64,000 nucleotides of DNA from Patescibacteria group bacterium. Lineage in GTDB: Bacteria; Patescibacteriota; Minisyncoccia; Minisyncoccales; Staskawiczbacteraceae. The stretch covers positions 49,558 to 113,557 of the forward strand of contig JAHJTG010000005.1 of assembly GCA_018829965.1 (NCBI GenBank), in the 5' to 3' direction. Below the pieces are notes generated by a model. That model did no database searches. It had not been told where the DNA came from and saw nothing but the letters and a program-made list of their open reading frames with translations. A program made the translations under genes and the position numbers. The stretch's first letter is position 1. Each line of letters starts with the position of its first letter. Of the stretch, positions 6,051 through 62,609 are shown in pieces.

Positions 6051-6551
6051 GTGAATCTAAATAAAGCTTTTATTTTAGGAAATGTAACCCGCACCCCAGA
6101 GGCAAAAGCTTTGCCAAGCGGATTATCAGTAGTAAATTTTGGTGTAGCTACAAATAGATTTTATACAGATAAAACTGGCACAAAAAAACAGGATGCCGAG
6201 TTTCATAATGTTGTTGCTTTCGGGAAATTAGCCGACATCTGCTCTAGTTATTTAAATAAAGGTTCTCTGGTACTAATTGAAGGAAGAATCCAAACAAGGA
6301 ATTGGCTTAATTCTTCTGGTGTTAAGCAATATAGAACAGAAATTGTTGCTAGCAATATACAGCTAGCTCCGAAATCAATGTCAGGCCCTACTTCTGGGTC
6401 AATGCCAGCATCAGGTATCGGAGAAAAAAACGAGGAAATTCCAATTATTGAAGAAAATTATATACCGCCGTCTGTAGATAATTTAAATCAGCCACAATCA
6501 GCGGAATTACCAGATGAGCAGGAAATAGATGTTAAGGATATCCCGTTCTAA
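6051..6551 (+). CDS. ssb: single-stranded DNA-binding protein
   Basis: OB-fold N-terminus (NKAFILGNVTRTPE) and the acidic C-terminal tail ending DIPF. The tracked ORF begins at a TTG at 6018; a GTG at 6051 is the more likely start. Confidence 0.85.
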   Translation: MNLNKAFILGNVTRTPEAKALPSGLSVVNFGVATNRFYTDKTGTKKQDAEFHNVVAFGKLADICSSYLNKGSLVLIEGRIQTRNWLNSSGVKQYRTEIVASNIQLAPKSMSGPTSGSMPASGIGEKNEEIPIIEENYIPPSVDNLNQPQSAELPDEQEIDVKDIPF

Positions 6552-6669
6552 AATACTAAATCCGAAATTCTAAATCCTAAACAAACCCCAAATTCTAAAT
6601 CACAAAATCAAAACGTGTTTAGAATTTAGATATTAGAATTTAGAATTTCTTTTATTAAATAAAAGTGTT

Positions 6670-27717: not shown

Positions 27718-28446
27718 TTAACGAATTTCACAGATTTTAAAAAACGGGGATATTTCTTTTTTGACAGAAATTAACCATTCTTCGGGGTATGGCTTTATTT
27801 TTTCAAAACTGGAATCAATTGTTTTTTCCGGACGAAAGTTTTGTAAATAATATTTAACATTTGTTCCTCCTATCCATTTTGCAATTTCTAAGAAATCTTC
27901 TTTTTTATTAACAGTCGGCACCGCCGTCGTCCTGAATTCAAAGTCAATTTTCCCTTTTCTTAATATCTCAACACTTTTTTTAATCTCCTTTTCGTATTTT
28001 TGGATTTGGGATTTGGGGGTTTTTTGGGATTTAGGATTTAGGATTTGGGATTTAAACACCAAAGGGGTTTTGATATCCATCGCCACATAATCTATCAACT
28101 TCTTGTCTATTAATTTTTCTAACATTTCTGGATTTGAACCATTAGTATCTAATTTCACTAAAAAACCCATTTTTTTTATTTTCTTTATAAGCTCTGGTAA
28201 ATCTTTATTCATACTCGGCTCTCCTCCGCAGATCACAACTCCTTCTAACAATCCCTTTCTGCTTTCTAAAAAATCAAAAACTTCCTTCTCTGTTATTCTT
28301 GGTTGTTTTTTTATTTTTTCCGGTAAAACCAATTCTGGGGAATAGCACCATGGGCAAAAAAAATTGCAACCGGAAATAAAAACCGTGCAAGCTAACTTGC
28401 CCGGAAAATCAATGAGAGTATTTTTTTGTAACCCTCCAATTATCAT
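27718..28446 (-). CDS. nrdG: anaerobic ribonucleotide reductase activating protein (radical SAM)
   Basis: 242 aa with CNFFCPWC (CxxxCxxC), directly downstream of nrdD. It carries an in-frame heptamer-repeat insert (…FKSQILNPKSQKTPKSQIQK…). Confidence 0.8.
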   Translation of the reverse strand: MIIGGLQKNTLIDFPGKLACTVFISGCNFFCPWCYSPELVLPEKIKKQPRITEKEVFDFLESRKGLLEGVVICGGEPSMNKDLPELIKKIKKMGFLVKLDTNGSNPEMLEKLIDKKLIDYVAMDIKTPLVFKSQILNPKSQKTPKSQIQKYEKEIKKSVEILRKGKIDFEFRTTAVPTVNKKEDFLEIAKWIGGTNVKYYLQNFRPEKTIDSSFEKIKPYPEEWLISVKKEISPFFKICEIR

Positions 28447-31692: not shown

Positions 31693-31813
31693 GGGTCAAG
31701 TTTTCACCAATTTTTACAACAGAAATTGAATACTAATAATGACAATCGCAGGCGCTTCGCATATTATACAAACTATTATGTCTATTCTCTGCTGAAATTG
31801 GTGAAGGGTCAAG
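31693..31813. repeat. MITE-like ~121-bp element, copy 1 (terminal inverted repeats TCACCAATTT…AAATTGGTGA, flanked by GGGTCAAG)
   Basis: About 85% identical over ~120 bp to 40836-40956. Lies between the nrdD start and the ftsZ stop. Confidence 0.5.
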
Positions 31814-34716: not shown

Positions 34717-35719
34717 TTATTTACTGTCTTTAATATATAATTTTAAAATCTTATTTTTAATTTTATAAGTATTGCCGTGTTTTATTAGTCCTAAATAAGA
34801 AGCGAGGGTTTTAATGTTTAAATCTTTATTTATATTTTTAAATATTCTTCTCTTTGTAGCCGTACGAAGCACCCGATGGTCTGGAAAATTGATCCATCCC
34901 AAAAAATCAACTCCCGAAAATAAAATTTTAATGAATATTTTATCGGAATGCATAATAAGTTTTAATCTGTTTTTTAAAAAATTGTTAATTATTTCAATTA
35001 AACTTTCTATATGTTTTTTGTCTTTTGATAAAATAATAAAGTCGTCAGCATATCTAATATAGTGTTTCTCTTTTAATTTATGTTTTGCAAAATTATCAAA
35101 TTCATTCATATAAACATTAGCGAAAAGCTGCGAAGTTAAGTTTCCAAGAGGCAAACCAGTCCCTATTTTTCCTGAATTAAAACTGAATATTATCTCCTTT
35201 AAAACATTTATAACATTTTCATCTGATATGTATTTTTGTAAAATCTCCAACAATATTTGCTGATTAATACTTGCAAAAAAACTTTTTAATATCGCATTTT
35301 AAAACCCAGCAGGTTTTTGTGTTATTTTTTGAAACAATGTAGGCAAACTCTCTGAACCTATTTATTGCCCTATGCGTTCCTTTATTGTCTCTACAAGAAA
35401 AAGAATCTGGAATAAATGTCCCATTAAAAAATGGGCGCAATATGCGATATACGGCACGGTGTAAAAGACGGTCGCGGACGCTGGCTTTGTGGATTGTTCT
35501 TGTTTTTGGGTCGCTTATTTTGAAACATTGGTAGTTGCCGTGTTCGTATATATGATTTTTTAAATCATGGTGCAATGATAAAATATTATCCATTAAATAA
35601 AATGAAAACATTAGAACATCTTTTCTGTTCCTCTTTCCCCTAACAAAGGCTCTCCATGCATTTAATAAATTATCAACACTAATTATATCTTCAAATTTAT
35701 GTCTCAATTTAATCCTCAT
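34717..35719 (-). pseudogene. DGR-type reverse transcriptase (DGR-1) split by a +1 frameshift in a T7 homopolymer
   Basis: Two ORFs (35264-35719, 151 aa; 34717-35253, 178 aa) together align along the full length of the intact RT at 53541-54533. The break is at …CDIKKFF where this copy has AAAAAGTTTTTTT (7 T) and the intact copy has 6 T. Deleting one T restores FFASI…. Carries the IGNLTSQ and YIRYADDF motifs. Confidence 0.75.
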
Positions 35720-36085
35720 AATAATTTTTTAAACCTCGCCAACAACCAATTTAGTTTGAGTATAATTCAAAAATTAACTAATACCTATAAAGTATGGTAT
35801 GAATATTTACCTGACTTTCCTAAAGATTCAAAATATACCCTTGGCGCTAAGGTTGATTCTTTATTTTTAGAAGTAATTGAAGAAATAATAAAAGCGAGCA
35901 GTTCAGACAAGACAGAGAAACTAATTTTTCTTAAAACCGGTTCTGCTAAGTTAGATTTACTTAAATTTTTTTTGCAAATTGTTTGGGAGATAAAATCTTT
36001 AGATAATAAAAAATATATAAACCTTTCTGAAAAACTGAACGAAATTGGGAAAATGCTGGGGGGATGGCTTAAGTCGTTAAAATAA
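35699..36085 (+). CDS. avd: Avd-like four-helix-bundle accessory protein of DGR-1
   Basis: 128 aa with LPDFPKDSKYTLGAKVDSLFLEVIEEIIKA, matching the FPK-E-Y-L…NI-EG pattern of the four-helix-bundle family to which DGR Avd belongs. Nearly identical over the C-terminal 100 aa to the ORF at 54513-54896. Encoded divergently, with its 5' end overlapping the RT start. Confidence 0.55.
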   Translation: MSQFNPHNNFLNLANNQFSLSIIQKLTNTYKVWYEYLPDFPKDSKYTLGAKVDSLFLEVIEEIIKASSSDKTEKLIFLKTGSAKLDLLKFFLQIVWEIKSLDNKKYINLSEKLNEIGKMLGGWLKSLK

Positions 36086-36119
36086 AAACCACCCAAAGGG
36101 GTGGAAAAAACAAAGAGAT

Positions 36120-36256
36120 TTGCGGGGGAGGACGAAGACGAAATGATTGTTGCTATTCCAAACGTTGTCAGAATTGTCATAGTAGCTGTTGAGCCACAGA
36201 CTATTGTCATTATGCTCCACATTGAACAGCTTGAGATCGCCATCCGAGTCAGTAAT
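36120..36256 (-). repeat. DGR-1 template repeat (TR1), 137 bp
   Basis: Aligns without gaps to VR1 (36636-36772) with 10 mismatches, 9 of them at TR adenines in the minus-strand coding sense. The 3' end in coding sense is GC-rich and identical (…CGTCTTCGTCCTCCCCCGCAA). Confidence 0.8.
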
Positions 36257-36631
36257 ATATAAAGCGTCATCTATGCCACTGCCCATTGAATGCTCTCCGG
36301 GCTGAATCTTATTCGGTATCTTAATATACCTTAACACCTTATACCAAGTATCTTCATTTTTTAAAAATCAGAGATGACTCTTTTGAAAGGCGTACCCGTC
36401 AAAATTCTGCATACATCTGAAATATAGAATTCGGCCACCTGAAGCCGTAACCGCAGATTTATTAGCCTACTATCCGATTTCAATTTTAGCATATCGGGAG
36501 AAAAAAAAGAACCCCTCTTTGCATTTTTAAATTGCATGAGGGGTCTTTGTCTTTTGCGTCTCTTGAAGTTTTAAGGAACCAAGCGTTCAAAGAAGAACAA
36601 AGGTTCCAAGCTACCAAGAGTATTTTGAAGA

Positions 36632-37258
36632 TTACTTGCGGGGGAGGACGAAGACGAAAGGATAGTTGCCATTCCAAACGCTGCCAGAATGGGCATAGTA
36701 GCTGTTGAGCCACAGACTATTGTCATTATGGTCCACATGGAACAGCTCGAGATCGCCATCCGAGTCAGTAATTGGCTCCATGGCGATAATAAGTACTTCG
36801 CCTTTGGGCTGGTCTTTGTACTGTAAGCGCAGTTGGGGGCCGACTTCATTCGGGCAGAGTTCTAAACCGAGCTCTTTTGCTCTGGCGTAAATCTTCTCAC
36901 GAGTCTCTCCATTCTTGAAACCGAGATCGGCAACACTGATGTTGACTAAATCCAATTCTGTTTCCTTGACGGTAACCGTGAACTGAGACTTGCCAAGAAT
37001 GTCGTTAGCGTATTTGCCGATTTCCATTCCGTTATCCTTTATGGCTTTACGGAAGTCGTCGGCGGTTGTGATGCCAGTGCCGAGGGTGATGGTTTGGAAA
37101 ATTTTAAAACTTGGCATCGTTTCTGGCGGACATAAGGCATTTTTGAGAACTTTTTGAAGACCCTTAGGATTCTCAATCCAGCTTTGCATCAGATCATCTG
37201 GCATTTCGGGTAAATTTTGTGCTACTACTCCAACAAATTTTGCAGTTTGTTTGTGCAT
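36632..37258 (-). CDS. DGR-1 target (variable) protein with a C-terminal VR
   Basis: 208 aa with SD AAAGGAG 8 nt upstream. C-terminus …DSDGDLELFHVDHNDNSLWLNSYYAHSGSVWNGNYPFVFVLPRK is encoded by VR1; the TR encodes …FNVEHNDNSLWLNSYYDNSDNVWNSNNHFVFVLPRK, Asn-rich as AAY codons. Confidence 0.75.
   Translation of the reverse strand: MHKQTAKFVGVVAQNLPEMPDDLMQSWIENPKGLQKVLKNALCPPETMPSFKIFQTITLGTGITTADDFRKAIKDNGMEIGKYANDILGKSQFTVTVKETELDLVNISVADLGFKNGETREKIYARAKELGLELCPNEVGPQLRLQYKDQPKGEVLIIAMEPITDSDGDLELFHVDHNDNSLWLNSYYAHSGSVWNGNYPFVFVLPRK
36636..36772 (-). repeat. DGR-1 variable repeat (VR1)
   Basis: See TR1. Ends at the stop codon of the target gene. Confidence 0.8.
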
Positions 37259-37512
37259 GGCGTTTTCTCCTTTCTGAGGTTTTCGCCTATTCTATTTATA
37301 CTAGAGGACCACCACAATGATAGTCATAGCCAGAAAACACCGAAAACTTTTATCAGTATCTTTTGGCTATGACTATAAATTGCAAGTAATTTTGAGTGTA
37401 AAAGAGCTTATTCACTATGTTTTAACTATAGCACTACCGAGAACTGTTGTCAAGCCCGAAAACAAAAAAACCGCCCTAGGCTTCCCAAAGACGGTTTCGA
37501 AAACTTATTACT

Positions 37513-40835: not shown

Positions 40836-40956
40836 TTGTCAACCCTTCACCAATTTTTTACAACAGAAAATGAACACTAACAATGACAGCCGCAGGCGCT
40901 TCGCATATTGTACAAACTATTACAATGATTCTCTGCTGAAATTGGTGAAGGGTCAA
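40836..40956. repeat. MITE-like ~121-bp element, copy 2
   Basis: Terminal inverted repeats CCCTTCACCAATTT / AAATTGGTGAAGGG. Followed by a hairpin plus T-run at 40973-41035. Confidence 0.5.
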
Positions 40957-41531
40957 GAATAGAATAAAAAAACCGAGACAGCTCATCAACTTCCAGTTTG
41001 GAAGGGAGCATCTCGGTTTAATTTTTTTACAACCCAGTTCTATTTTATATTAAAGTTTTTGTTATCCATCAACCCTTCCATATTTTGGAGTTTTTGGGTT
41101 AATTTGGTTATCCTTAACCTAATTAAATAGAATTTTTGGGCTAGGTTCGTTATTGAACCTCTTTTTGTAACTTTTTTTGGAAATAAAATTAAGTAAATCC
41201 GCTGAACTTACGCATAATTCTATACGTAATCCTCCTTTCGTTTCTTTATCACGAAGTTAATAACTAACTGTTAGAACGGCCTCCTTACCTGTACTAAGGG
41301 GGTTTTCCAGACTTGATTCCTGTTTCCATAGGAATTCTCCAAATAAAAGTTAAAGCAAAAGTTTCAAAAAACACTTTCTGCGCTTCTGTAATTGAAACGC
41401 AGTTGTAGTTAATAAACTAATACCTCGTAAAGAACTATCTTATATAGTAATCTTCTCTATAAAATTGTCAAGACAATTTTTCCACAGATTAAAAAAATGA
41501 TACAATAAGATATAAAATATTTCTTAAAATT

Positions 41532-43121: not shown

Positions 43122-43313
43122 CCTTACGAATTACGAATTAAACCGAATTACGAATATACCGAAACCGATTTACGAATATACTAATCTGCGGTTTCGGATA
43201 CGAATAAATCTATTCGTAGCCGATTGCCCAAATTCGTAAATTCGTATCTGGTAATCGGTAAATTCGTACAACACTTTCTGTATATTCGTAATTCGAAAAT
43301 ATTCGTAATTCGT
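43122..43313. promoter_or_regulatory. palindromic array of TACGAAT / ATTCGTA heptamers upstream of topA
   Basis: About 5 TACGAAT in the left half and about 7 ATTCGTA in the right half, centred near 43207, plus inverted repeat CCGAAACCG/CGGTTTCGG. An ATTCGTAT x2 block also lies upstream of ssb (6005-6040). Confidence 0.4.
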
Positions 43314-45374
43314 ATGATACTTATGAATTTAATTATCGTTGAGAGTCCGGTGAAGGCAAAGACGATTGGGAGGTTTTTAGGGAGTAAATATAAAGTACTC
43401 TCTTCTTTTGGTCACGTAAGAGATCTTCCTAAAAGAAAACTAGGAGTTGATGTTGAAAACGATTTTAAGCCAGAGTATATTGTCCCTGTAAAAGCGAAAA
43501 AAACCGTTTCCGCTTTAAAAAAAGCTATTAAAAAAGACACAAAGACTATACTGGCAACGGACGAGGACCGAGAAGGAGAAGCAATCGCCTGGCATTTGAA
43601 AGAAGTTTTGGGGTTAGAAAATCCGGAAAGAATTGTTTTTCACGAAATAACAAAGTCTGCAATTGAAGAAGCTTTAAAAAATCCGAGAATAATTGATATG
43701 AATTTAGTTGATGCTCAACAAGCAAGAAGAATTTTGGACAGAATTGTAGGATATAAACTTTCTCCTTTCTTATGGAAGAAAATCACTAAAGGCCTATCTG
43801 CTGGCAGAGTGCAATCAGTTGCTGTACGATTGGTTGTTGAAAAAGAAAAAGAAATTGAAAAGTTTATCGTACAAGAATATTGGACTATTGAAGCATTGCT
43901 AAAAAAATACGGAAAAGAATTCAACGCTGTATTAATCAAAAAAGACAACGAACCAATAGAAAAACTGGATATTAACTCAAAAGCTGACGCAGAGAAAATC
44001 GTTAAAGATTTAGAGAATGCTGAATATAAGGTAATTGATGTTGAGAAAAAAGAAGTTAAGAAAAACCCCCTTCCTCCATTTACCACCAGCACCCTACAAC
44101 AAGAAGCTTGGAAACGGCTCCATTATCCAGCAAGATTTACTATGAGGATAGCTCAAGAACTTTACGAGAAAGGAAATATCACTTATCACAGAACCGATTC
44201 TGTAAAGCTTTCACAGATTTCTTTAACAGAAGCTAAAAGCTTTATTGAAGAAAAATATGGTAAAAATTATTGGGCGGGATATTTCAGACAATATGTATCA
44301 AAAGGAAAAACACAGGAAGCCCACGAAGCAATAAGACCAACTTTTGCCAAAAATACTCCAGAGAAATTAGGGTTAGAAGAAAGACATTTTAAACTTTACA
44401 ATTTAATTTGGCAAAGATTTGTTTCTTGCCAAATGGCCACTGCTATTTTTGACGCGACTAACATAGACATTGATGCAAATAATTATACATTCCACGCCAC
44501 AGGACAAACTTTAAAGTTTGATGGGTTTCTAAAAGTATATCCTATGAAATTTGAAGAAAACGAATTGCCACCCTTAAAAAAAGAAGATATTTTAGAGCTT
44601 ATAAAACTTGCTCCCCTACAACACTTTACAGAACCGCCGGCAAGATATAATGAAGCCAGTTTGATTAAGGCGCTGGAAAAGCATGGCATTGGCCGTCCAT
44701 CTACCTATGCCCCAACACTGGCTACAATCCAAGACAGAAATTATGTTGAAAAAAACGAGCAAAAAAGATTTAAACCAACTGAAGTTGGAACAATAGTTAA
44801 TAATCTTTTAGTAGAACACTTTCCTCAAATTATTGATATTGAATTCACTGCAAAATTAGAAAAAGAACTAGATCAAGTAGCTGATGGCAAAGACACGTTA
44901 ATTAAAACCTGCCGTGACTTCTATGTTCCTTTTGCAAAAAATCTTAAAGAAAAATACGAAGAAGTTTTAAAGTCAGATATAACGGATAAGCCGACTGGAA
45001 AGAAGTGTCCGAAATGCGGAACCCCCTTAGTTGAACGCCTCGGCAGATTCGGAAGATTTTATGCCTGCCCTAAATTTCCTAAATGTAAATATGCCGAATC
45101 CCTAGAAAAAGATAATTTAAATATAAAATGTCCCAAGTGTAATAAAGGGAAAATTACAGCTAAAAGAACTAAAAAGGGAAAGATATTTTACGGCTGCAAT
45201 AACTTTCCAGAGTGCGATTTTGCCCTATGGGACAAACCTATTCTTAATGATAAAAATGAACCGGAAAAATGCCCCGAATGCGGTTCTTTATTGGTCCAAA
45301 AAGGCAAAACCATAAAGTGCTCTAATAAGGAGTGCTTGTATAAAACAAAAGGGGGAGAAGATACTCCCTCCTAA
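43314..45374 (+). CDS. topA: DNA topoisomerase I with C-terminal zinc ribbons
   Basis: Toprim N-terminus MNLIIVESPVKAKTI and DEDREGEAIAWH, plus three CxxC…CxxC ribbons. Start set at the ATG at 43314 or 43323; the tracked ORF start at 43224 lies inside the repeat array. Confidence 0.9.
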   Translation: MILMNLIIVESPVKAKTIGRFLGSKYKVLSSFGHVRDLPKRKLGVDVENDFKPEYIVPVKAKKTVSALKKAIKKDTKTILATDEDREGEAIAWHLKEVLGLENPERIVFHEITKSAIEEALKNPRIIDMNLVDAQQARRILDRIVGYKLSPFLWKKITKGLSAGRVQSVAVRLVVEKEKEIEKFIVQEYWTIEALLKKYGKEFNAVLIKKDNEPIEKLDINSKADAEKIVKDLENAEYKVIDVEKKEVKKNPLPPFTTSTLQQEAWKRLHYPARFTMRIAQELYEKGNITYHRTDSVKLSQISLTEAKSFIEEKYGKNYWAGYFRQYVSKGKTQEAHEAIRPTFAKNTPEKLGLEERHFKLYNLIWQRFVSCQMATAIFDATNIDIDANNYTFHATGQTLKFDGFLKVYPMKFEENELPPLKKEDILELIKLAPLQHFTEPPARYNEASLIKALEKHGIGRPSTYAPTLATIQDRNYVEKNEQKRFKPTEVGTIVNNLLVEHFPQIIDIEFTAKLEKELDQVADGKDTLIKTCRDFYVPFAKNLKEKYEEVLKSDITDKPTGKKCPKCGTPLVERLGRFGRFYACPKFPKCKYAESLEKDNLNIKCPKCNKGKITAKRTKKGKIFYGCNNFPECDFALWDKPILNDKNEPEKCPECGSLLVQKGKTIKCSNKECLYKTKGGEDTPS

Positions 45375-51860: not shown

Positions 51861-53505
51861 TTTGTTTCTTTAATAGAAGAGCGCAAATTCTTCGACAAAC
51901 TATTAGCGATACTTCTTTTTTTATTAAGAATTCTTTAACTGCTTCTTCTAATTCTTTTATATTAATAGGGTCTAAAACTTTAATATGCTTTACCCCGCAA
52001 GCCTTAGCAATTTCTTCTATCTTCAATTCCTCTGTATTTTCACCCATCAATGTCTTCCCCATACCAGGATTTACTTGATGACCAGTCATAGCTGTTATTC
52101 TATTGTCTAAAACAACAATCAAAGGACTTGATTTATTATAGACAGTATTTATAAGTGCTGGAATTCCTGAATGGAAAAATGTTCCATCCCCCATAATGGA
52201 TATGACCTTTTGGTCCGTAGCCTTCCCTACGCCATGCGATATCCCCAAGCCAGCTCCCATCGAAAAAAGATAATCCTGCATATTATGAGGAGAAAGACCT
52301 GCAATCATATTACAACCGATGTCGCCACCAAAAATTGTTCCCTCAGTAGCCACTTTTTTTATTATAGGTAAAATATACCAATAAGGACAACCTTCACAAA
52401 GCCTAGCACTTCTTTTGGGTAAGTCTAAGATTTTAGACTTCTCGATTACAAATTTCTTGCCCGTTATTTTCGATAAAGCGATACAGACCTTATCTGTATC
52501 TAATTCTCCAACCGTTGGTAAAACATCTTTGCCATAAATAGTTAATTTATCTTTTGCTAAACGCACTATTTCATTTTCTAAATAAGGATCTAATTCTTCA
52601 ACAACTAGTATTTTCTTTTTGCCTTTTATAAAATCGGTAATCATTTTTTCTGGCAAAGGATAAAAAAATCCTAATTTTAAAACAGGTAGTTGTATTCCTA
52701 ATGTTTTAAGAGCTTCTAAAATATGCAGATAAGAAATACTAGAGGCGATAATGCCAATTTTATTCTTTTTGCCAATAACCTTATTAATTTTAGATTTTTC
52801 TGCAAATTGCCTGATCTTCTCAATTTTTTGCAAAAGCTCTTTTTTCATTTCTAAAACTCTCGGCGGCATTGTACAGAACTGATGCGGATTTTTTATAAAT
52901 ACGCCTTTTGGAATTTTGGATTTGGGATTTGAGATTTGTTTAGGGTTTAGGATTTGGGATTTAGAATTTATCGTAACTGGCATTTTTTGGTGAGAAACTC
53001 TCGTAGTTGTCCTTAAAATTACAGGGATATTAAATTTTTCTGATATTTCAAAGCCTAATTTTGTGAAATCACAGCATTCCTGCGGGTCTGAAGGATCTAA
53101 AATTGGTATACGGCTTAAATAAGCATATCCTCTTGAATCTTGCTCTGATTGGGCAGAACTATGACAAGAAGGATCATCTCCAATAAAAATTACCATCGGA
53201 CCTTTAGTGCCAGTATAGGCTAAAGGCAATAAGCTATCAGAGCAAACATTCACCCCAAAGCTTTTCATATTAACTAAAGTCTTTAAGCCAGAAAAACTAG
53301 CTCCGATTGCAACCTCTAGTGCAACTTTTTCGTTTGTTGACCATTCTGCATAAATACCTTTTTCCTTAGCAATATCTTTGAACCCATCTCCCACTTCAGC
53401 AGAAGGACATCCAGGATAACCGGAAACGAAATCAACGCCTGCTTCTAAGGCGCCCTGAACTATTGCTTCGTTGCCTAATAGAATCTTTTTCATATATATA
53501 AACAA
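51853..53505 (-). CDS. iorA: indolepyruvate:ferredoxin oxidoreductase alpha subunit (TPP-binding)
   Basis: 550 aa with N-terminal LLGNEAIVQGALEAGVDFVSGYPGCPSAEV and TPP motif MGDGTFFHSG. Carries an in-frame heptamer-repeat insert (…INSKSQILNPKQISNPKSKIPKG…). Confidence 0.7.
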   Translation of the reverse strand: MFIYMKKILLGNEAIVQGALEAGVDFVSGYPGCPSAEVGDGFKDIAKEKGIYAEWSTNEKVALEVAIGASFSGLKTLVNMKSFGVNVCSDSLLPLAYTGTKGPMVIFIGDDPSCHSSAQSEQDSRGYAYLSRIPILDPSDPQECCDFTKLGFEISEKFNIPVILRTTTRVSHQKMPVTINSKSQILNPKQISNPKSKIPKGVFIKNPHQFCTMPPRVLEMKKELLQKIEKIRQFAEKSKINKVIGKKNKIGIIASSISYLHILEALKTLGIQLPVLKLGFFYPLPEKMITDFIKGKKKILVVEELDPYLENEIVRLAKDKLTIYGKDVLPTVGELDTDKVCIALSKITGKKFVIEKSKILDLPKRSARLCEGCPYWYILPIIKKVATEGTIFGGDIGCNMIAGLSPHNMQDYLFSMGAGLGISHGVGKATDQKVISIMGDGTFFHSGIPALINTVYNKSSPLIVVLDNRITAMTGHQVNPGMGKTLMGENTEELKIEEIAKACGVKHIKVLDPINIKELEEAVKEFLIKKEVSLIVCRRICALLLKKQNG

Positions 53506-53540: not shown

Positions 53541-54533
53541 CTAAACAACAAAACTCTTAATAATCGCTTCTTTTGTTTTATAAGTATTGCCGTGTTTTAT
53601 CAGTCCAAAATAAGAATTAAGGGGTTCAATATTCAGATTTCTTTTTATCTTCTTAAACATTCTTCTCTTTGTAGCAGTGCGAAGTACCCGATGACTTGGA
53701 AAATTAACCCAACCCAAAAAATCAACCCCAGAGGATAGAGTTTTAATGAATATTTTGTCGGGATGCATGACAAGCCTTAATCTGTTTTGTAAAAAATTGC
53801 TAATTATTTGGATTAAATTTTCTATATGTTTTTTATCTTCAGACAAAACAATAAAATCATCGGCATATCTGATGTAGTATTTTCCTTTTAATTCATGCTT
53901 CATAAACTGGTCAAACTCATTCATATATACGTTGGCAAAAAGCTGAGAAGTTAAGTTGCCAAGAGGCAAACCGGTTTCTTGTTTTCCTGAATTAAAACTG
54001 AATATTATTTCTTTTAAAAGGTAAACAATATTTTTATCCAGTATGTATTGCTCTAAAATATTGACCAAAATATTTTGATCAATTGAGGCAAAAAACTTTT
54101 TAATATCGCATTGTAAAACCCAGCAGGTTTTTGTGTTGTTTTTTGAAACAATATAGATAAACTCTCTGAACCTATTTATGGCCTTATGCGTTCCTTTATA
54201 ATTTCTGCAGGAAAACGAATCTGAAATAAAGGTTTTATCGAAAAACGGGTATAATATACGATATACGGCGCGATGTAATAGGCGATCGCGAACGCTAGCT
54301 TTGTGGATTATTCTTGGTTTTGGATCGCTTACTTTAAAACATTTGTATCCGCCGTGTTTGTAATTATTATTAATCAGGTCGTAATACAATGATAAAATAT
54401 TATCCATCAGACTAAATTGGAATTCTTGTACATCTTTTTTGTTTTTCTTTCCCCTGATAAATTCTTTCCATGTATCTAATAAATTATCAATACTAATAAT
54501 ATCTTCAAATTTATGATTCAATCTTATTTTCAT
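53541..54533 (-). CDS. DGR reverse transcriptase (DGR-2), intact
   Basis: 331 aa from MKIRLNHKFEDI. N-terminal …W..F..GK..K…F…NIL.L..L…Y.HG.Y..F.V.DPK.R.I.KA.V.DR.LHRA pattern, the DGR-specific motif-4 signature LGNLTSQ, and catalytic YIRYADDF. No maturase or endonuclease domains. Confidence 0.85.
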   Translation of the reverse strand: MKIRLNHKFEDIISIDNLLDTWKEFIRGKKNKKDVQEFQFSLMDNILSLYYDLINNNYKHGGYKCFKVSDPKPRIIHKASVRDRLLHRAVYRILYPFFDKTFISDSFSCRNYKGTHKAINRFREFIYIVSKNNTKTCWVLQCDIKKFFASIDQNILVNILEQYILDKNIVYLLKEIIFSFNSGKQETGLPLGNLTSQLFANVYMNEFDQFMKHELKGKYYIRYADDFIVLSEDKKHIENLIQIISNFLQNRLRLVMHPDKIFIKTLSSGVDFLGWVNFPSHRVLRTATKRRMFKKIKRNLNIEPLNSYFGLIKHGNTYKTKEAIIKSFVV

Positions 54534-54896
54534 AATAATAATTTTACTTCTAACCCCCCATTTAGCTTGAGTATAATTCAAAAACTGACGCGGGTTTACA
54601 AACTATGGCAAGAATATTTGCCTGATTTTCCAAAAGATTCAAAATATACTCTTGGCGCAAAAGTTGATTCTTTGTTTTTAGAAGTAATTGAAGAAATAAT
54701 AAAAGCAAGCAGTTCAGATAAAACAGAAAAACTAATTTTTCTTAAAACCGCTTCTGCTAAATTAGACCTGCTTAAATTTTTCTTGCAGATTGTTTGGGAG
54801 ATAAAATCTTTAGATAATAAGAAATACATCTTACTTTCTGAAAAACTGAATGAAATAGGCAAAATGCTTGGAGGATGGATCAAATCGTTAAAGTAA
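54513..54896 (+). CDS. avd: Avd-like four-helix-bundle accessory protein of DGR-2
   Basis: 127 aa, same family pattern as avd of DGR-1 and >90% identical to it over the C-terminal ~100 aa. Divergent to the RT and overlapping its start by ~21 nt. Followed by hairpin GGCGATAAAAATA/TATTTTTATCGCC. Confidence 0.55.
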   Translation: MIQSYFHNNNFTSNPPFSLSIIQKLTRVYKLWQEYLPDFPKDSKYTLGAKVDSLFLEVIEEIIKASSSDKTEKLIFLKTASAKLDLLKFFLQIVWEIKSLDNKKYILLSEKLNEIGKMLGGWIKSLK

Positions 54897-55005
54897 GCAA
54901 AGCATATTTTCGTCATTCATTCGGCGATAAAAATATTAATATTTTTATCGCCCTCATTTATTAGAGAATAAAAACCGCCTAAAAAGGCGGAAAAAACGAA
55001 GAGAT

Positions 55006-55136
55006 TTGCGACGACCGAGGAAGCGATCGTCCTCATACCAAGCATACCCGAAAGAGCGCAGGTTCAAGCGCCGATCATCAGCATGGCTGCACAAACACGG
55101 CACGAGGAGATAGCCACCGGGAATCCGCCAGGACGA
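55006..55136 (-). repeat. DGR-2 template repeat (TR2), 131 bp
   Basis: Aligns without gaps to VR2 with 8 mismatches, 6 at TR adenines in coding sense. Encodes Asn/Tyr-containing SSWRIPGGYLLVPCLCSHADDRRLNLRSFGYAWYEDDRFLGRR. The bidirectional hairpin CCGCCtaaaaaGGCGG lies just outside at 54975-54997. Confidence 0.75.
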
Positions 55137-55503
55137 TATATATAAAACATCATCTATGCCACTGCCCTTCGAAGCTATAAAACGATCTCAGGGCTGTATC
55201 TAATTCGGTATCTAAAATACCTTAATGCTTTATACCAAGTAATCTTCGTTTTTTACTAAATCAGGAACGACTCTTCCAGAAGCCGTAACCGCTGGAATCC
55301 TGCGTTATCCTGAAATATAGAATTCGGCCGCCTGAAGCCTTGACCGCAAACATATTAGCCTACTATCCGAATTAATAATATCATTATTTGTAAAATGTGA
55401 AAACCCCGAAACGAACATTCGTTTCGGGGTTTTATTGCCAAGGGTTCAAGAGACTAAGATTCAATGAAGAATCAAGGTTCCAAGTTCCCAAGGATTTTGA
55501 AGA

Positions 55504-56103
55504 TTACTTGCGACGACCGAGGAAGCGATCGTCCTCATACCAAGCAGACCCGAAAGAGCGCAGCGGCACGCGCCGATCATCAGCAAGGCTGCACAAACAC
55601 GGCACGAGGAGACAGCCACCGGGAACCCGCCAGGACGACTTTAGAGCAACTATCGGAAATTGTCGTTGAAGCTCCGGCTGATCTGATCCTAACGCGAGCA
55701 GGTCTGCGATATCTCCAGGCTCACATCCAGCTTGGGACATTTCAGCAATCGCATCATCACTCGAGATATTACGTTTGAAGTCGAAAAGGATGAATTCTTT
55801 CTCTTCTTTACCACTACCCACGACCGGAAAATGCTCTTGAGTGATATCACTATTTACACAATCATATTTACCAGCTTTAATCATTTCCGCTAAGGTCTTG
55901 GTGCGGTCCACTGTGAGGTTATAGATTGGACGGACAACACCAACAATGAATTTAGCAATTTGTTTTACCAAATCCTCACCCTCAGGTGTCGCGAGCTTAC
56001 GAATGCTCTCGTCATCTCCGCCTAGCTTATAAACTTCTTTTACTAATGCCTGAATTATAGACATTAACACTCCCATCCACGATACAAGATTTGACTTCGC
56101 CAT
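55504..56103 (-). CDS. DGR-2 target (variable) protein with a C-terminal VR
   Basis: 199 aa with SD AAAGGAG upstream. C-terminal 44 aa are encoded by VR2. The middle region is weakly similar to the DGR-1 target. Confidence 0.7.
   Translation of the reverse strand: MAKSNLVSWMGVLMSIIQALVKEVYKLGGDDESIRKLATPEGEDLVKQIAKFIVGVVRPIYNLTVDRTKTLAEMIKAGKYDCVNSDITQEHFPVVGSGKEEKEFILFDFKRNISSDDAIAEMSQAGCEPGDIADLLALGSDQPELQRQFPIVALKSSWRVPGGCLLVPCLCSLADDRRVPLRSFGSAWYEDDRFLGRRK
55508..55638 (-). repeat. DGR-2 variable repeat (VR2)
   Basis: See TR2. Ends at the target stop codon. Confidence 0.75.
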
Positions 56104-56284
56104 TTTTATCTCCTTTTAACTTTTTCGGCAAATCTCCCGTTCCAGAACAACTGAAATCTCAGACTCGCCTTTGGTTGAAACCATTAAACTGCTTTTTTGT
56201 AATCTAATGGTTTCAACCAAATTTATCGCAAGTAATTTTAGATATAAAAGAGCTTACTTACTATTTATAATATAACACGCCTCC

Positions 56285-58753
56285 TTACCTCTTGTCAATA
56301 GCAACAAGGTTTATTAACTTACCTAATATAAATATTATTTTCTTAACTTCTTTACCTTCAATCCATTTCTTGATCTTCTCGCTGTTTAAAGCAAGCTTCT
56401 CCGCCTCTTTTTGGGTAATATCAGAATCAACCTCTATTTTATCGCGCACACTGCCATTAATCTGAATAATTAATAACACTCTTTCCCTCTTAATTAATTC
56501 AGAATCATATTTAGGCCACTCTTGTTCACAACAAAACCCTTTAAATCCCGCCTGCTTCCAGAGCTCTTCAGATATATGAGGAGCAAATGGTGAGAATAAG
56601 ATTAATAGCTTTTCAATTGTATCTTTACCAACTTCGTTTTGATGACTGCTAATAAAATTCAGAAATTCCATAAAAGCAGCCACTGATGTATTAAACTTCG
56701 CTGCTTCCAAGTAGCTACCTATTTTTTTAATCAAACGATTTAAAGCTGATTCTACTTCTTTACTGCTTTTTTTACTATTGCAACCTAAAATCAAATCCCA
56801 GAATCTCTCTAAAAATCTCCTACATCCCTTTATTCCTTGAGTATTCCATGCAATCGCTTGATCAAACGGCCCCATAAACATTTCGTAAAGCCTTAAAGTA
56901 TCTGCGCCGTATTCTTTCACAATATTGTCAGGATTTACCACATTGCCCCATGACTTTGACATTTTCCTGCTGTCCTCAGCTAAAACCATCCCGTGAGATG
57001 TTCTTTTAGCATAAGGCTCTGATTGCGGAGCGACTTTAATATCATATAAAAATTTGTACCAAAAACGAGAGTACAATAAATGGAGAGTCGTATGTTCCAT
57101 CCCCCCGTTATACCAATCAACCGGCATCCAATATTTCAATTTTGCGGAATCAGTCAATTCCTTATTATTCTTCGGGTCAATGTATCGCATGAAATACCAA
57201 GAAGAACCTGCCCAATTCGGCATAGTGTCTGTTTCTCTCTTAGCCGATCCTTTGCATTTCGGACATTTTACGTTTACCCATTTTGAAATAGCTGATAAAG
57301 GAGATTCGCCAGTTCCTGTCGGCTGATAATTCTTAACAAAAGGTAGTTTCACCGGCAAATCTTTTTCTGGAACTGGCCACATTCCTTGCCCGCCGTAGCC
57401 TTGGCGAAGGTGGGCGCACTTCTCGCAATGAACAATAGGTATTGGCTCGCCCCAATAATGCTGTCTTGAAAATACCCAATCGCGAAGCTTGTATTGAATT
57501 GTTTTTTTGCCTAAACTATTTAGCTCCAGCCATTTTGTAATCTTTTCAATTGCTTCTTCAGATTTTAGCCCATTGAATTCTCCTGAATTAATCAAAACTC
57601 CATATTCTTCGTAAGCCATTTCGCATCCGTGTAAATCCGTTTTCTTATCTGTGTCAATCTGTGGCGCTATAACTTCCCGCATGGGAAGATTATAGCGCTT
57701 AGCAAACTTGTAATCCCTGCTATCATGAGCCGGAACCATCATTACTGCTCCTCCGCCATAAGTTGCCACGACATAATCTCCTATCCAAATCGGCACTTTT
57801 CCTCCGTTTAAAGGATTAATGCAATAAGAGCCAGTGAAAACTCCTGTCTTCTCTTTTTCCAATTCTATTCTTTCAAATTCGCTTTTAAGCTTAGACTGTT
57901 TAATATATTCTTTGACCTTAGCTTCGTTTTCTTTTGTAATAATTTCTAAGGCCAATGGATTTTCCGGAGCTAAAACAACAGCAGTTACTCCGAAGATAGT
58001 ATCTACCCTTGTTGTAAAAACAGTTATTTTCTTTTCCGAGTTTTCTATTTTGAAATCAACTTCTGCTCCAAAGCTTTTCCCTATCCAGTTTATCTGCTGA
58101 GTTTTTATCTTTTCTAAATAATTAACATTATCTAAGTCTTTTATCAGACGATCTGCGTATTTAGTAATCTTTAGCATCCATTGTTCTTTTTCTTTCTGCT
58201 CTCCTTGAGTTCCGCATCTTTCACATTTGCCATTAACTACTTCTTCATTCGCTAATCCGGTTTTGCAAGAAGGACACCAATTAATCGGCATTCTCTTTTT
58301 ATACGTCAATCCATTCTCAAAAAGCTTTAAGAATATCCACTGAGTCCATTTATAGTATTTAGGGTCGGTTGTATTAATCTCTCTTTGCCAATCAAAAGAA
58401 AGACCTAAGCTTTTTAATTGGCGCTTGAAGGTAGCAATATTTTTCTTTACCGTAACTGAAGGATGAATACCTGTTTTAATGGCATAATTCTCTGCCGGCA
58501 AACCAAAAGCATCCCAACCGATTGGAAACAAGACATTGAATCCTTCCATTCTCTTTTTCCGAGCAACTGCATCTAAAGCCGTGTAGCTTCTTACATGCCC
58601 TACGTGCAAACCCTCGCCAGAAGGATAAGGGAATTCGATTAAAACATAAAACTTCGGCCTCTTTGACTTATCCTTTGCCTGAAAAACCTTTCCTTTTTCC
58701 CAGATTTTCTGCCATTTCGATTCAATTTTACCAGGATTATATTTTAAAACCAT
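56285..58753 (-). CDS. leuS: leucyl-tRNA synthetase
   Basis: HVGHVRSY (HIGH), KMSKSWGN (KMSKS), an editing domain and zinc motifs. Start chosen at the ATG at 58753 (MVLKYNP); the tracked ORF begins at an upstream TTG. Confidence 0.9.
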   Translation of the reverse strand: MVLKYNPGKIESKWQKIWEKGKVFQAKDKSKRPKFYVLIEFPYPSGEGLHVGHVRSYTALDAVARKKRMEGFNVLFPIGWDAFGLPAENYAIKTGIHPSVTVKKNIATFKRQLKSLGLSFDWQREINTTDPKYYKWTQWIFLKLFENGLTYKKRMPINWCPSCKTGLANEEVVNGKCERCGTQGEQKEKEQWMLKITKYADRLIKDLDNVNYLEKIKTQQINWIGKSFGAEVDFKIENSEKKITVFTTRVDTIFGVTAVVLAPENPLALEIITKENEAKVKEYIKQSKLKSEFERIELEKEKTGVFTGSYCINPLNGGKVPIWIGDYVVATYGGGAVMMVPAHDSRDYKFAKRYNLPMREVIAPQIDTDKKTDLHGCEMAYEEYGVLINSGEFNGLKSEEAIEKITKWLELNSLGKKTIQYKLRDWVFSRQHYWGEPIPIVHCEKCAHLRQGYGGQGMWPVPEKDLPVKLPFVKNYQPTGTGESPLSAISKWVNVKCPKCKGSAKRETDTMPNWAGSSWYFMRYIDPKNNKELTDSAKLKYWMPVDWYNGGMEHTTLHLLYSRFWYKFLYDIKVAPQSEPYAKRTSHGMVLAEDSRKMSKSWGNVVNPDNIVKEYGADTLRLYEMFMGPFDQAIAWNTQGIKGCRRFLERFWDLILGCNSKKSSKEVESALNRLIKKIGSYLEAAKFNTSVAAFMEFLNFISSHQNEVGKDTIEKLLILFSPFAPHISEELWKQAGFKGFCCEQEWPKYDSELIKRERVLLIIQINGSVRDKIEVDSDITQKEAEKLALNSEKIKKWIEGKEVKKIIFILGKLINLVAIDKR

Positions 58754-61553: not shown

Positions 61554-61900
61554 TCGGCTTCTCCTTTCACTGCCCGCTTTCCGCCCCGCTTCAACGAGAG
61601 GCTGGCCTTCGGAATTCTCCTAGGGCCGGGCGACCGCGCGCACGCAGGCTCTGTGCCGCGCAGATTTAACAAGATGTATTATCAAAGAACTATTTAAAAA
61701 GTTAACAGGTCCAAACTTTCTTCACAGCGGTTTCAAATATTTCAAACATCACTTCGCCCCTGCCTGTTTTTATAAGCACAAATTCTTTCCCTTTCTTAAA
61801 AAACCATATCTTTTTTTAATCCACTTTTTCATTTTCAAGAATACAATTAAATAAAATTCTTTCTTAATTTATCCTCCTTTCTGGATTTCTATCCATATAA

Positions 61901-61965
61901 AATTGTTAAAAAACTTGATTTAATACTTAATTTAATAATCTAACAGGTTTAAAAATCTTTGTCAA
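61901..61965 (-). promoter_or_regulatory. promoter-containing 65-bp direct repeat, copy 1, driving a long leader of the GC-rich gene
   Basis: About 90% identical to 62489-62553. On the minus strand it reads TTGACAAAG-…-TAAATT (-35/-10-like, 17-bp spacer). Confidence 0.4.
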
Positions 61966-62043
61966 ATGGTTTTAAAAAGGTTTTAAAAAGGTGGTTTTAA
62001 AAAGGGCTACATAAATGCAGCCCTTTTTTCCTCAAATCTTCCC

Positions 62044-62487
62044 TTACTTATACTTAGGGTCGGGAACATAATTAAACCTAAGATGACCATCTTGTTGTAT
62101 TAATTCACATGTTGTTGGTATCAAGTTAGGGTTCTTCCATGTAATCATGAATTCTAATGGATTTACAGAAGTCATTTTAATTGAAAATATATCATCTTGC
62201 GTAAAAAAGTTTCCATCTGGAACGCCATGCTGAAAACCCAGACAGCATGATTCATCAACCCATAAACCACCTGGTACCACAAAATTAGGATTCGCTATAA
62301 TGCGATGATACTCACGTATAGCGTTTGCAATTCTCATCATCTTTGCTTCTCTTTTTAACCATCTGGCTTTGTTTACCTTTCCCCGTATCACGGGTATTGT
62401 CACCATTGCAATTATAGCCAGAATCACAACAATCAGAATCATCTTTCTCGTTTTCATAATGTTCCTTTCTAAAATTCCGGTATTCAT
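62044..62487 (-). CDS. hypothetical N-terminally membrane-anchored protein
   Basis: 147 aa with a single N-terminal TM helix (MILIVVILAIIAMVTIPVI) followed by a helical region. It lacks the GFTLIE prepilin motif. Confidence 0.4.
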   Translation of the reverse strand: MNTGILERNIMKTRKMILIVVILAIIAMVTIPVIRGKVNKARWLKREAKMMRIANAIREYHRIIANPNFVVPGGLWVDESCCLGFQHGVPDGNFFTQDDIFSIKMTSVNPLEFMITWKNPNLIPTTCELIQQDGHLRFNYVPDPKYK

Positions 62488-62488
62488 T

Positions 62489-62553
62489 TGTTAAAAAACT
62501 TAGTTTAATGCTTAATTTGATAATTTAACAGGTTTAAAAACCTTTGTCAAATT
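62489..62553 (-). promoter_or_regulatory. promoter-containing 65-bp direct repeat, copy 2, immediately upstream of ORF 62044-62487
   Basis: On the minus strand: TTGACA-aaggtttttaaacctgt-TAAATT. Confidence 0.4.
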
Positions 62554-62609
62554 TTTGTGTAAAAAACGCGGTTTGCATCGCGTTTTGATTATTGAGTTAA
62601 CTTTAAAAA

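Follow-up and report, generated by a model that had tools for sequence, protein, structure and literature searches.

The DNA analysed here, called the window throughout, is a 64,000-nt stretch of contig JAHJTG010000005.1 (assembly GCA_018829965.1, positions 49,558 to 113,557) from a Patescibacteria group bacterium of the Staskawiczbacteraceae. Between positions 53,541 and 56,103 it carries a diversity-generating retroelement (DGR), here DGR-2, which consists of a reverse transcriptase (RT) gene, RT2, an avd gene, avd2, a template repeat (TR), TR2, and a target gene that ends in a variable repeat (VR), VR2 (Table 1). A repeat search and our own alignment found that TR2 and VR2 form a direct, ungapped pair of 131 nt with 94% identity, which occurs in two copies in the whole window. 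Read on the minus strand from TR2 to VR2, the eight mismatches are A>C, C>G, A>C, A>C, T>G, A>T, A>G and A>G. The adenines of TR2 make up 15 of its 131 nt (11% of positions), yet they take six of the eight mismatches (sense-strand adenines, T on the plus strand), the other two being C>G and T>G, and because of this bias the copy at 55006-55136 is the template. An earlier note, made from the sequence letters, had proposed this gapless repeat with its adenine bias, and both are borne out here; the larger ordinary duplication that it named as the alternative is not found, since identity drops off abruptly beyond either end of the 131 nt. All 15 TR2 adenines lie at codon positions 1 or 2 (by our own arithmetic, a chance of about (2/3)^15 = 0.002), and adenine variants create no stop codon, the boundary AAG excepted. 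The GC content of TR2 is 58.8%, compared to 34.7% for the window.

RT2 matches Pfam RVT_1 (6e-26), and its best solved relative is chain 8ub7_A (328 aa; E 1e-42 over residues 8-297), followed by group II-type RTs at 1e-20 in the PDB, that is, 22 orders of magnitude behind. This chain is deposited only as 'Reverse transcriptase'; we take it to be bRT, the Bordetella phage DGR RT of the cryo-electron microscopy (cryo-EM) work of Handa et al. The alignment of the two proteins conserves PKPRxI (the fingertip), DxxKFFxSID, GxPxGxLTSQLFANVY and RYxDD, and within the GLPLGNLTSQ of RT2, LGNLTSQ aligns with IGSLTSQ of 8ub7_A, the (I/L)GxxxSQ motif. The scores of RT2 on the NCBIfam group II, retron and defence-associated RT (DRT) models are all far under their cutoffs, with 140.9 bits for the group II model TIGR04416 (group_II_RT_mat, cutoff 300) and 65.6 bits for the retron RT model NF038233 (cutoff 235). 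No maturase or endonuclease part was found in the 330 aa of RT2, and Rfam gave no match to a group II or retron RNA. Hence, the motif alignment, the length of the protein and the profile comparison all agree with the DGR-type RT that had been proposed from LGNLTSQ and the lack of a maturase or endonuclease domain. The open reading frame (ORF) described at that time as Avd-like passes the curated cutoff of NCBIfam NF033474 (DivGenRetAVD, 83.8 bits against 80) and matches Pfam PF22296 (bAvd, 2e-18). The NCBI annotation (KJ786 locus tags) already names avd2 as DGR protein Avd and places RT2 in the 'reverse transcriptase/maturase family'.

A second sequence (P0027) in the 90% cluster of the target protein led to a second assembly of the locus, contig k127_122669 of ENA ERZ928008. 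Over 8,600 bp, the window and this contig show 11 differences, all at 55528-55613 inside VR2; TR2, RT2, avd2 and the flanking genes are identical in both assemblies, with no difference over the other 8.47 kb. A paralogous element in the window, DGR-1, is also identical in both over 8,627 bp, including its variable repeat, VR1. Eight of the 11 differences are at TR adenine positions. At 8 of the 11, the base in ERZ928008 equals neither TR2 nor the VR2 of the window, and a chimeric assembly of TR and VR is therefore not the explanation. When both VR2 alleles are considered, 9 of the 15 TR-adenine positions are variable, compared to 5 of the 116 others (Fisher 3e-7). In summary, the comparison of the two assemblies supports a recent diversification of VR2. 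A search for more VR2 alleles through contigs with the exact RT returned only Logan contigs ending before the VR. The Logan contigs L164 and L165, from independent short-read assemblies of SRR6514730 and ERR2191545, break inside avd, 123 nt upstream of RT2; these breaks are likely to be caused by the long identical stretches of avd1 and avd2, and they call for caution in automated DGR detection in such assemblies.

VR2 forms the final 43 codons (131 nt) of the target ORF, which is preceded by an AAGGAG ribosome-binding site, as in the earlier description of a small gene with a strong Shine-Dalgarno sequence and VR2 at its 3′ end. The protein has no match in Pfam or NCBIfam; its family is large, as a word index gives 26 homologues and a profile search yields 7,612 clusters at 50% identity. 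Across 25 homologues, the C-terminus keeps the frame SVWRxPxGxRxVPxLxxxxxxRxLxLxWFxxxWxxxxRFLAVRK and is hypervariable around it. An AlphaFold model from the homologue alignment (mean predicted local distance difference test score, pLDDT, of 89.6) predicts a C-type lectin (CLec) fold displaying the VR, which is one of the scaffolds that had been suggested for this protein. Its nearest known counterparts include DGR variable proteins of solved structure, such as Treponema denticola TvpA (2y3c), with CLec folds of the formylglycine-generating enzyme (FGE) type. A surface protein, one of the two roles that the earlier note suggested, finds no backing in the hydropathy of the target, which lacks a clear signal peptide or transmembrane segment: among its 19-residue stretches, the most hydrophobic (residues 6-24) has a Kyte-Doolittle mean of 1.53, under the value of 1.6 that serves as a rule of thumb for transmembrane helices. 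In general, DGR targets of the Candidate Phyla Radiation (CPR) have no clear signal peptide or transmembrane segment (PMC8144416). The last ~20 nt of TR2 and VR2 are GC-rich and identical. Downstream of the VR stop codon, periodic CTTGG/CTTTG/CCTTGG-like motifs extend over 55436-55507 on the minus strand, and over 70 nt in most related loci; they may play a role in target-site recognition.

The relatives considered here are 80 loci encoding relatives of the RT, from metagenomes, and 76 loci encoding relatives of the target, from species-representative genomes. Those with informative labels belong to Patescibacteria lineages; many others are automatically labelled as 'uncultured Gammaproteobacteria' or 'bacterium', and one as 'Bacilli'. 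A self-written TR/VR scan found 70 distinct adenine-biased TR/VR pairs in these loci. The order target-VR, TR, avd on the opposite strand and RT is seen in 66 of the 67 loci that have RT, Avd and TR, which makes the divergent avd the standard of the clade, and a GC-rich TR in an AT-rich genome is likewise a clade-wide trait. Substitutions fall on adenines in 1,263 of 1,369 cases (A>G 57%, A>T 24%, A>C 19%), and half of the other 106 are changes from a pyrimidine to G (T>G 28, C>G 25), so the pyrimidine-to-G changes of VR2 are typical of the clade. Such changes may be a signature of the RT clade or reflect selection for AAG codons. Among the 70 TR/VR pairs (L005-L158), 18 of the 25 C>G changes lie directly 3′ of an adenine. 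The DGRs of the CPR were reportedly first surveyed by Paul et al. 2017. Wu et al. 2018 found the B3 architecture in 90% of their CPR set (PMC5758913). Roux et al. 2021 described a clade 2 that is restricted to Patescibacteria, with targets without transmembrane or known domains and VRs in C-Lec folds (PMC8144416). As judged from the descriptions in these papers rather than from placement in a tree, DGR-2 fits B3 and probably clade 2. Host phylum, gene order, inverted avd, chromosomal location and a small CLec target are all shared with other CPR/Patescibacteria DGRs, and nothing categorical sets DGR-2 apart from this group, of which it is a member. It stands out by a TR poor in adenines, by a paralogue with a frameshift at a distance of 18.8 kb and by the VR change between two assemblies.

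Immediately 5′ of the TR lies a structured leader RNA of ~230 nt, which is conserved across the clade. An extended −10 element (TGTGATAAAAT-like) just upstream of it is aligned at the equivalent place in relatives. From an alignment of 34 DGRs, all chosen for containing ACUUGG, RNAalifold predicts two hairpins (P1 and P2), a multi-helix domain (P3) and a long-range helix, in which AAAAAYGAAGA, just 5′ of UACUUGG, pairs with the sequence right after the 3′ end of the TR. Over the 54 pairs of this structure, 95.3% of the cells are paired, compared to 72.5% when shuffled and 42-47% with the partners slid; 48 of the 54 pairs change on both sides (covariation score 0.743 versus 0.272), and none of 500 shuffles attained the observed pairing or covariation values. 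In the long-range helix, all eight pairs have changed on both sides, and the helix is 90% paired. G-U pairs are abundant in the structure, which places the leader RNA on the strand of the TR sense and RT. In DGR-2, the long-range helix joins 55250-55243 to 55002-54995, and P3a, the outer helix of P3, joins 55235-55228 to 55147-55140, ending 3 nt before the TR. In 27 of the 34 DGRs, the 3′ strand of P3a is followed within 0-4 nt by the start of the homology between TR and VR, and in 33 of them this homology ends at most 3 nt from the long-range helix. A hairpin followed by a T run is found 8-20 nt after the TR in nearly all relatives, with differing sequences (CCACCC/GGGTGG in DGR-1); that of DGR-2 either terminates the TR RNA or serves as a stem-loop to which Avd binds. 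The long-range helix is established from the alignment, the RNAduplex output for leader against tail being untidy. A search of the window and 20 relatives with Rfam 15 gave nothing at the gathering score, and no family covers the leader RNA; a weak match to the RT-9 family (RF03080), of 22.8 bits against 46.1 (E 0.33), is no better than chance.

Table 1. Features of DGR-2, ordered by position, and of its paralogue DGR-1 (positions in the window)
Feature	Position	Strand	Remarks
RT2, DGR reverse transcriptase	53541..54533	-	330 aa with the ATG start; 346 aa if started at a TTG further upstream (54581)
avd2, four-helix-bundle accessory protein	54513..54896	+	head to head with RT, convergent with TR
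Perfect 13-bp palindrome after avd2	54923..54952	+	terminator-like for avd; terminator scan
GC hairpin CCGCC/GGCGG, then T run	54965..54990	-	16 nt 3′ of TR; terminator scan, fold z-score -4.3
Long-range helix, 3′ strand, UCUUCGUUUUUU	54991..55002	-	starts 3 nt past the last base shared by TR and VR
TR2, template repeat	55006..55136	- (sense)	repeat search, alignment; same in second assembly
P3 multi-helix domain	55140..55235	-	helices 6-10, 88-99% paired, most pairs covary
UACUUGG motif	55235..55241	-	between long-range helix and P3a; near-invariant, ACUUGG in 34/34 DGRs (chosen for containing it)
Long-range helix, 5′ strand, AAAAAACGAAGA	55243..55254	-	candidate primer strand; alignment, RNAalifold
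Leader hairpins P1 (55360-55326) and P2 (55305-55267)	55267..55360	-	helices 1-4, 96-98% paired
Promoter-like site for TR RNA	55375..55403	-	TTTTCA, 17 nt, TG-n-TATTAT (extended −10)
Strong terminator hairpin of target gene	55400..55433	-	fold -17.3 kcal/mol, z-score -7.1
VR2, variable repeat	55508..55638	-	last 43 codons of target ORF
Target gene, 199 aa	55504..56103	-	N-terminal helical part and compact C-type lectin fold (predicted), VR at C-terminus
Promoter-like site upstream of target	56269..56298	-	TTGACA, 18 nt, TG-n-TATATT; 11/12 matches
DGR-1	~34717-37258		layout as DGR-2; RT1 34717-35719, avd1 35699-36085, target 1 36632-37258
DGR-1 repeats	TR1 36120-36256, VR1 36636-36772		10 mismatches, 9 at adenines

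With its 15 adenines, TR2 has the fewest of all, as the TRs of its relatives have 25-38 (19-28% of positions), and it encodes a single Asn codon compared to 8-14 in theirs. The codons of the template, which had been described as rich in Asn and Tyr, thus include one AAC and three TAT, and TR2 is in fact adenine-poor. Of 31 columns with a consensus adenine, TR2 keeps 12, whereas the 14 TRs of the same target family keep 24-29; at non-adenine consensus columns, TR2 is normal (51 of 67, compared to 73-99% in the others; Fisher 6e-4). The lost adenines are replaced by G in nine cases and by T and C in five each, which resembles the VR spectrum of the clade, and at canonical AAY positions TR2 reads ATT, GGC, TAT, CTC, TGC, CAT, CGC and GAC, that is, AAY with the adenines alone changed. 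This pattern suggests that the template was most likely overwritten by an already mutagenised copy, through gene conversion from VR to TR or through mis-homing of the cDNA. TR2 retains 13 mutable adenines in 12 codons, which allow for 4^13, or ~6.7e7, DNA variants, a repertoire that is small for a DGR.

DGR-1 and DGR-2 are 81-88% identical at the nucleotide level in RT, avd and leader, and their TR/VR sequences and targets are unrelated. The palindrome after avd2 sits in sequence without a DGR-1 counterpart, in a gap of the alignment of the two elements; near the target promoter, 56225-56264 is shared with 37379-37418 of DGR-1 (83%). Homology between the two targets was considered and rejected (BLASTP E 47; probability 0.3% when the family profile was aligned to target 1 with hhalign), and they are treated as separate families. 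By eye, the C-termini of targets 1 and 2 look alike. The reading frame of RT1 is broken right behind DIKKFF, where a T7 run at 35281 holds one T too many. With this T removed, RT1 is 74% identical to RT2, and the ratio of nonsynonymous to synonymous substitution rates (dN/dS) is 0.19 in both halves, implying that the frameshift is recent or tolerated through slippage. The T7 run may be a phase-variable switch or be bypassed by slippage, or RT2 may serve TR1 in trans. In a syntenic relative (L002/L003), the target, 65% identical, lies between the genes for leucyl-tRNA synthetase (LeuRS) and pyruvate:ferredoxin oxidoreductase. It is accompanied there by its terminator, the promoter of the TR RNA and ~17 nt from the start of the leader (L003 6600-6950, L002 2520-2870), and in place of the remaining cassette there are an unrelated ORF and 197 nt copied from the LeuRS 3′ end. 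To judge by this arrangement, the DGR core of these relatives is deleted and the target is left frozen. Another relative (L001, 6001-7600) carries a lone target homologue without RT, avd or TR.

The DGR of Bordetella phage BPP-1 (cryo-EM entries 8ub7-8ube) shares with DGR-2 the RT family and its active-site motifs, Avd, the adenine-specific transfer from TR to VR and a CLec target; in both RNAs, one duplex borders the copied stretch at its 3′ edge and another at its 5′ edge, and the strands on the primer side and on the stop side are contiguous. In the phage ribonucleoprotein (RNP), positions 53-56 of the spacer (Sp) pair with TR 118-121 in the template:primer duplex, the primer being Sp A56, and the adjacent Sp 59-70 forms the stop duplex together with the avd segment that precedes the TR (bioRxiv 10.1101/2023.10.23.563531). 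By analogy, the long-range helix of DGR-2 may be a template:primer duplex and P3a a stop duplex. The arrangement is different, however: in BPP-1, avd lies upstream of the TR on the same strand, and the TR is followed on its 3′ side by the structured Sp of 140 nt and by the primer and stop strands, whereas DGR-2 has its ~230 nt of structured RNA and both candidate strands 5′ of the TR, avd on the opposite strand, ~45 nt after the TR (3 nt, the helix strand, the hairpin and a U run) and no clear hairpin of the initiation of mutagenic homing (IMH) type after VR2. The DGR-2 RNA therefore does not have the BPP-1-type layout of avd segment, TR and 3′ spacer. The survey in the phage study covered 40 nt upstream and 100 nt downstream of the TR (same preprint), and would thus have missed a 5′ leader. 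With the retron msr-msd, DGR-2 shares topology only, in that the template has its 3′ flank paired to a segment of the 5′ part and 2′-OH priming beside the helix is possible; the RT clades differ, and with Avd, a TR/VR pair and retrohoming into a gene, DGR-2 has the features of a DGR. We tentatively propose that the DGR RNA of this clade is a circular permutation of the phage RNA, with priming of a retron-like topology, and that TR2 is a case of natural template erosion. In such a permuted RNA, a protein-binding scaffold, a primer strand (AAAAAYGAAGA, then UACUUGG) and the stop strand of P3a may all lie 5′ of the TR, and these 5′ strands may clamp the TR through the long-range helix to its 3′ flank. 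Neither the permuted leader RNA nor the eroded template is described in the literature searched, a search that left Paul et al. 2017 outside.

With its components, the adenine bias, the predicted fold, the conserved RNA structure and the VR-only difference between assemblies, the locus is very probably a complete, recently active DGR of a Patescibacteria-specific clade. The loss of ~60% of the family's consensus adenines from TR2, the frameshift in the RT of the paralogue and the close relatives that keep only the target could instead point to a decaying, now silent DGR, with old standing variation or recombination as the source of the VR difference. This is improbable, as RT2, avd2 and all RNA helices are intact, and old variation should bring flanking single-nucleotide polymorphisms, whereas all 11 differences are confined to 131 nt and the remaining 8.5 kb and the 8.6-kb DGR-1 locus are free of them, 8 of the 11 being at the remaining TR adenines. 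Since TR and VR share 94% identity at a distance of 502 nt, and Logan contigs do break in the repeat formed by the avd paralogues, the assemblers might also have mixed reads from TR and VR or from paralogous cassettes. Such an artefact is very unlikely to have produced differing bases that for the most part (8 of 11) equal neither TR2 nor the VR2 of the window, the more so as TR1/VR1 is unrelated in sequence to TR2/VR2 and TR2 is the same in both assemblies. An ordinary tandem duplication beside a non-DGR RT, be it that of a group II intron, a retron or a defence system, would fit the fact that group_II_RT_mat is the best NCBIfam model for RT2 and would fit its NCBI family name. We give this next to no credence, as that score is less than half of the cutoff and the protein is short and devoid of a maturase or endonuclease; group II and retron RNAs are absent by Rfam, the presumed DGR bRT is by far the closest solved relative, a DGR Avd is adjacent, the mismatches are adenine-specific and the repeat ends are sharp.

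Several observations weigh against the reading of a recently active DGR. The earlier note had expected population variation to be restricted to the adenine-templated positions of the VR. In the second assembly, the differences are indeed confined to VR2 and lie mostly at TR adenines, but 5 of the 14 variable VR2 positions are not adenines, all of them changed to G (T>G four times and C>G once), with 3 of the 5 directly 3′ of a mutated adenine. This non-adenine share exceeds that of a textbook DGR, though pyrimidine to G is the commonest such change in the clade. The comparison covers two assemblies, and hence two alleles, which may or may not come from different samples, and 'active' accordingly means changed since the common ancestor or polymorphic in the population, and not a measured rate. 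The stretch after VR2 shows no significant DNA hairpin and gives no support to a cruciform, as it folds no better than shuffled sequences (z-score 0.85; the stretch after VR1 in DGR-1 has a fold z-score of -2.5), and no IMH/IMH* pair could be defined at TR2/VR2. The priming and stop roles of the helices are taken by analogy with the phage RNP (bioRxiv 10.1101/2023.10.23.563531), and the loss of adenines from TR2 could come from ordinary drift under relaxed selection.

Other repeats also occur in the window. Intergenic arrays of short GGATTT/AAATCC-like repeats lie at 842-944, 6551-6652, 27975-28054 and 52891-52970, and also in a related genome (L001 1514-1650 and 3595-3650). Unrelated to the DGRs are a 103-nt direct repeat with 89% identity (31711-31813 and 40855-40957), an 83-nt AT-rich direct repeat with 83% identity (61896-61978 and 62481-62563) and a 57-nt inverted repeat of TACGAAT-like units (43125-43314).

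For the recently active DGR that we favour, the proposed mechanism is as follows. An RNA of ~400 nt would be transcribed on the minus strand from the extended −10 promoter; in it, the structured leader would be followed by the 131-nt TR and then by a short tail with the hairpin and U run at its end. RT2 and Avd2 would copy the TR into cDNA, misincorporating opposite adenines, and this cDNA would replace VR2 at the end of the predicted CLec-fold protein. On its own, the call of a DGR adds little: an abundance of DGRs is a known trait of CPR genomes, and avd2 already has its label at NCBI. The locus does show VR turnover cleanly in nature, in two genomes that are identical over 17 kb save for 11 bases of VR2. 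It also gives a snapshot of DGR decay in one lineage, from an eroded template in DGR-2 and a frameshifted RT in DGR-1 to relatives with a frozen target; if the erosion of TR2 is real, it would have locked in most of the formerly variable codons. Mechanistic work on DGRs has so far rested on a phage element whose RNA is arranged oppositely, and the conserved leader provides a testable model of how cDNA synthesis may start and stop in the most abundant cellular DGR clade.

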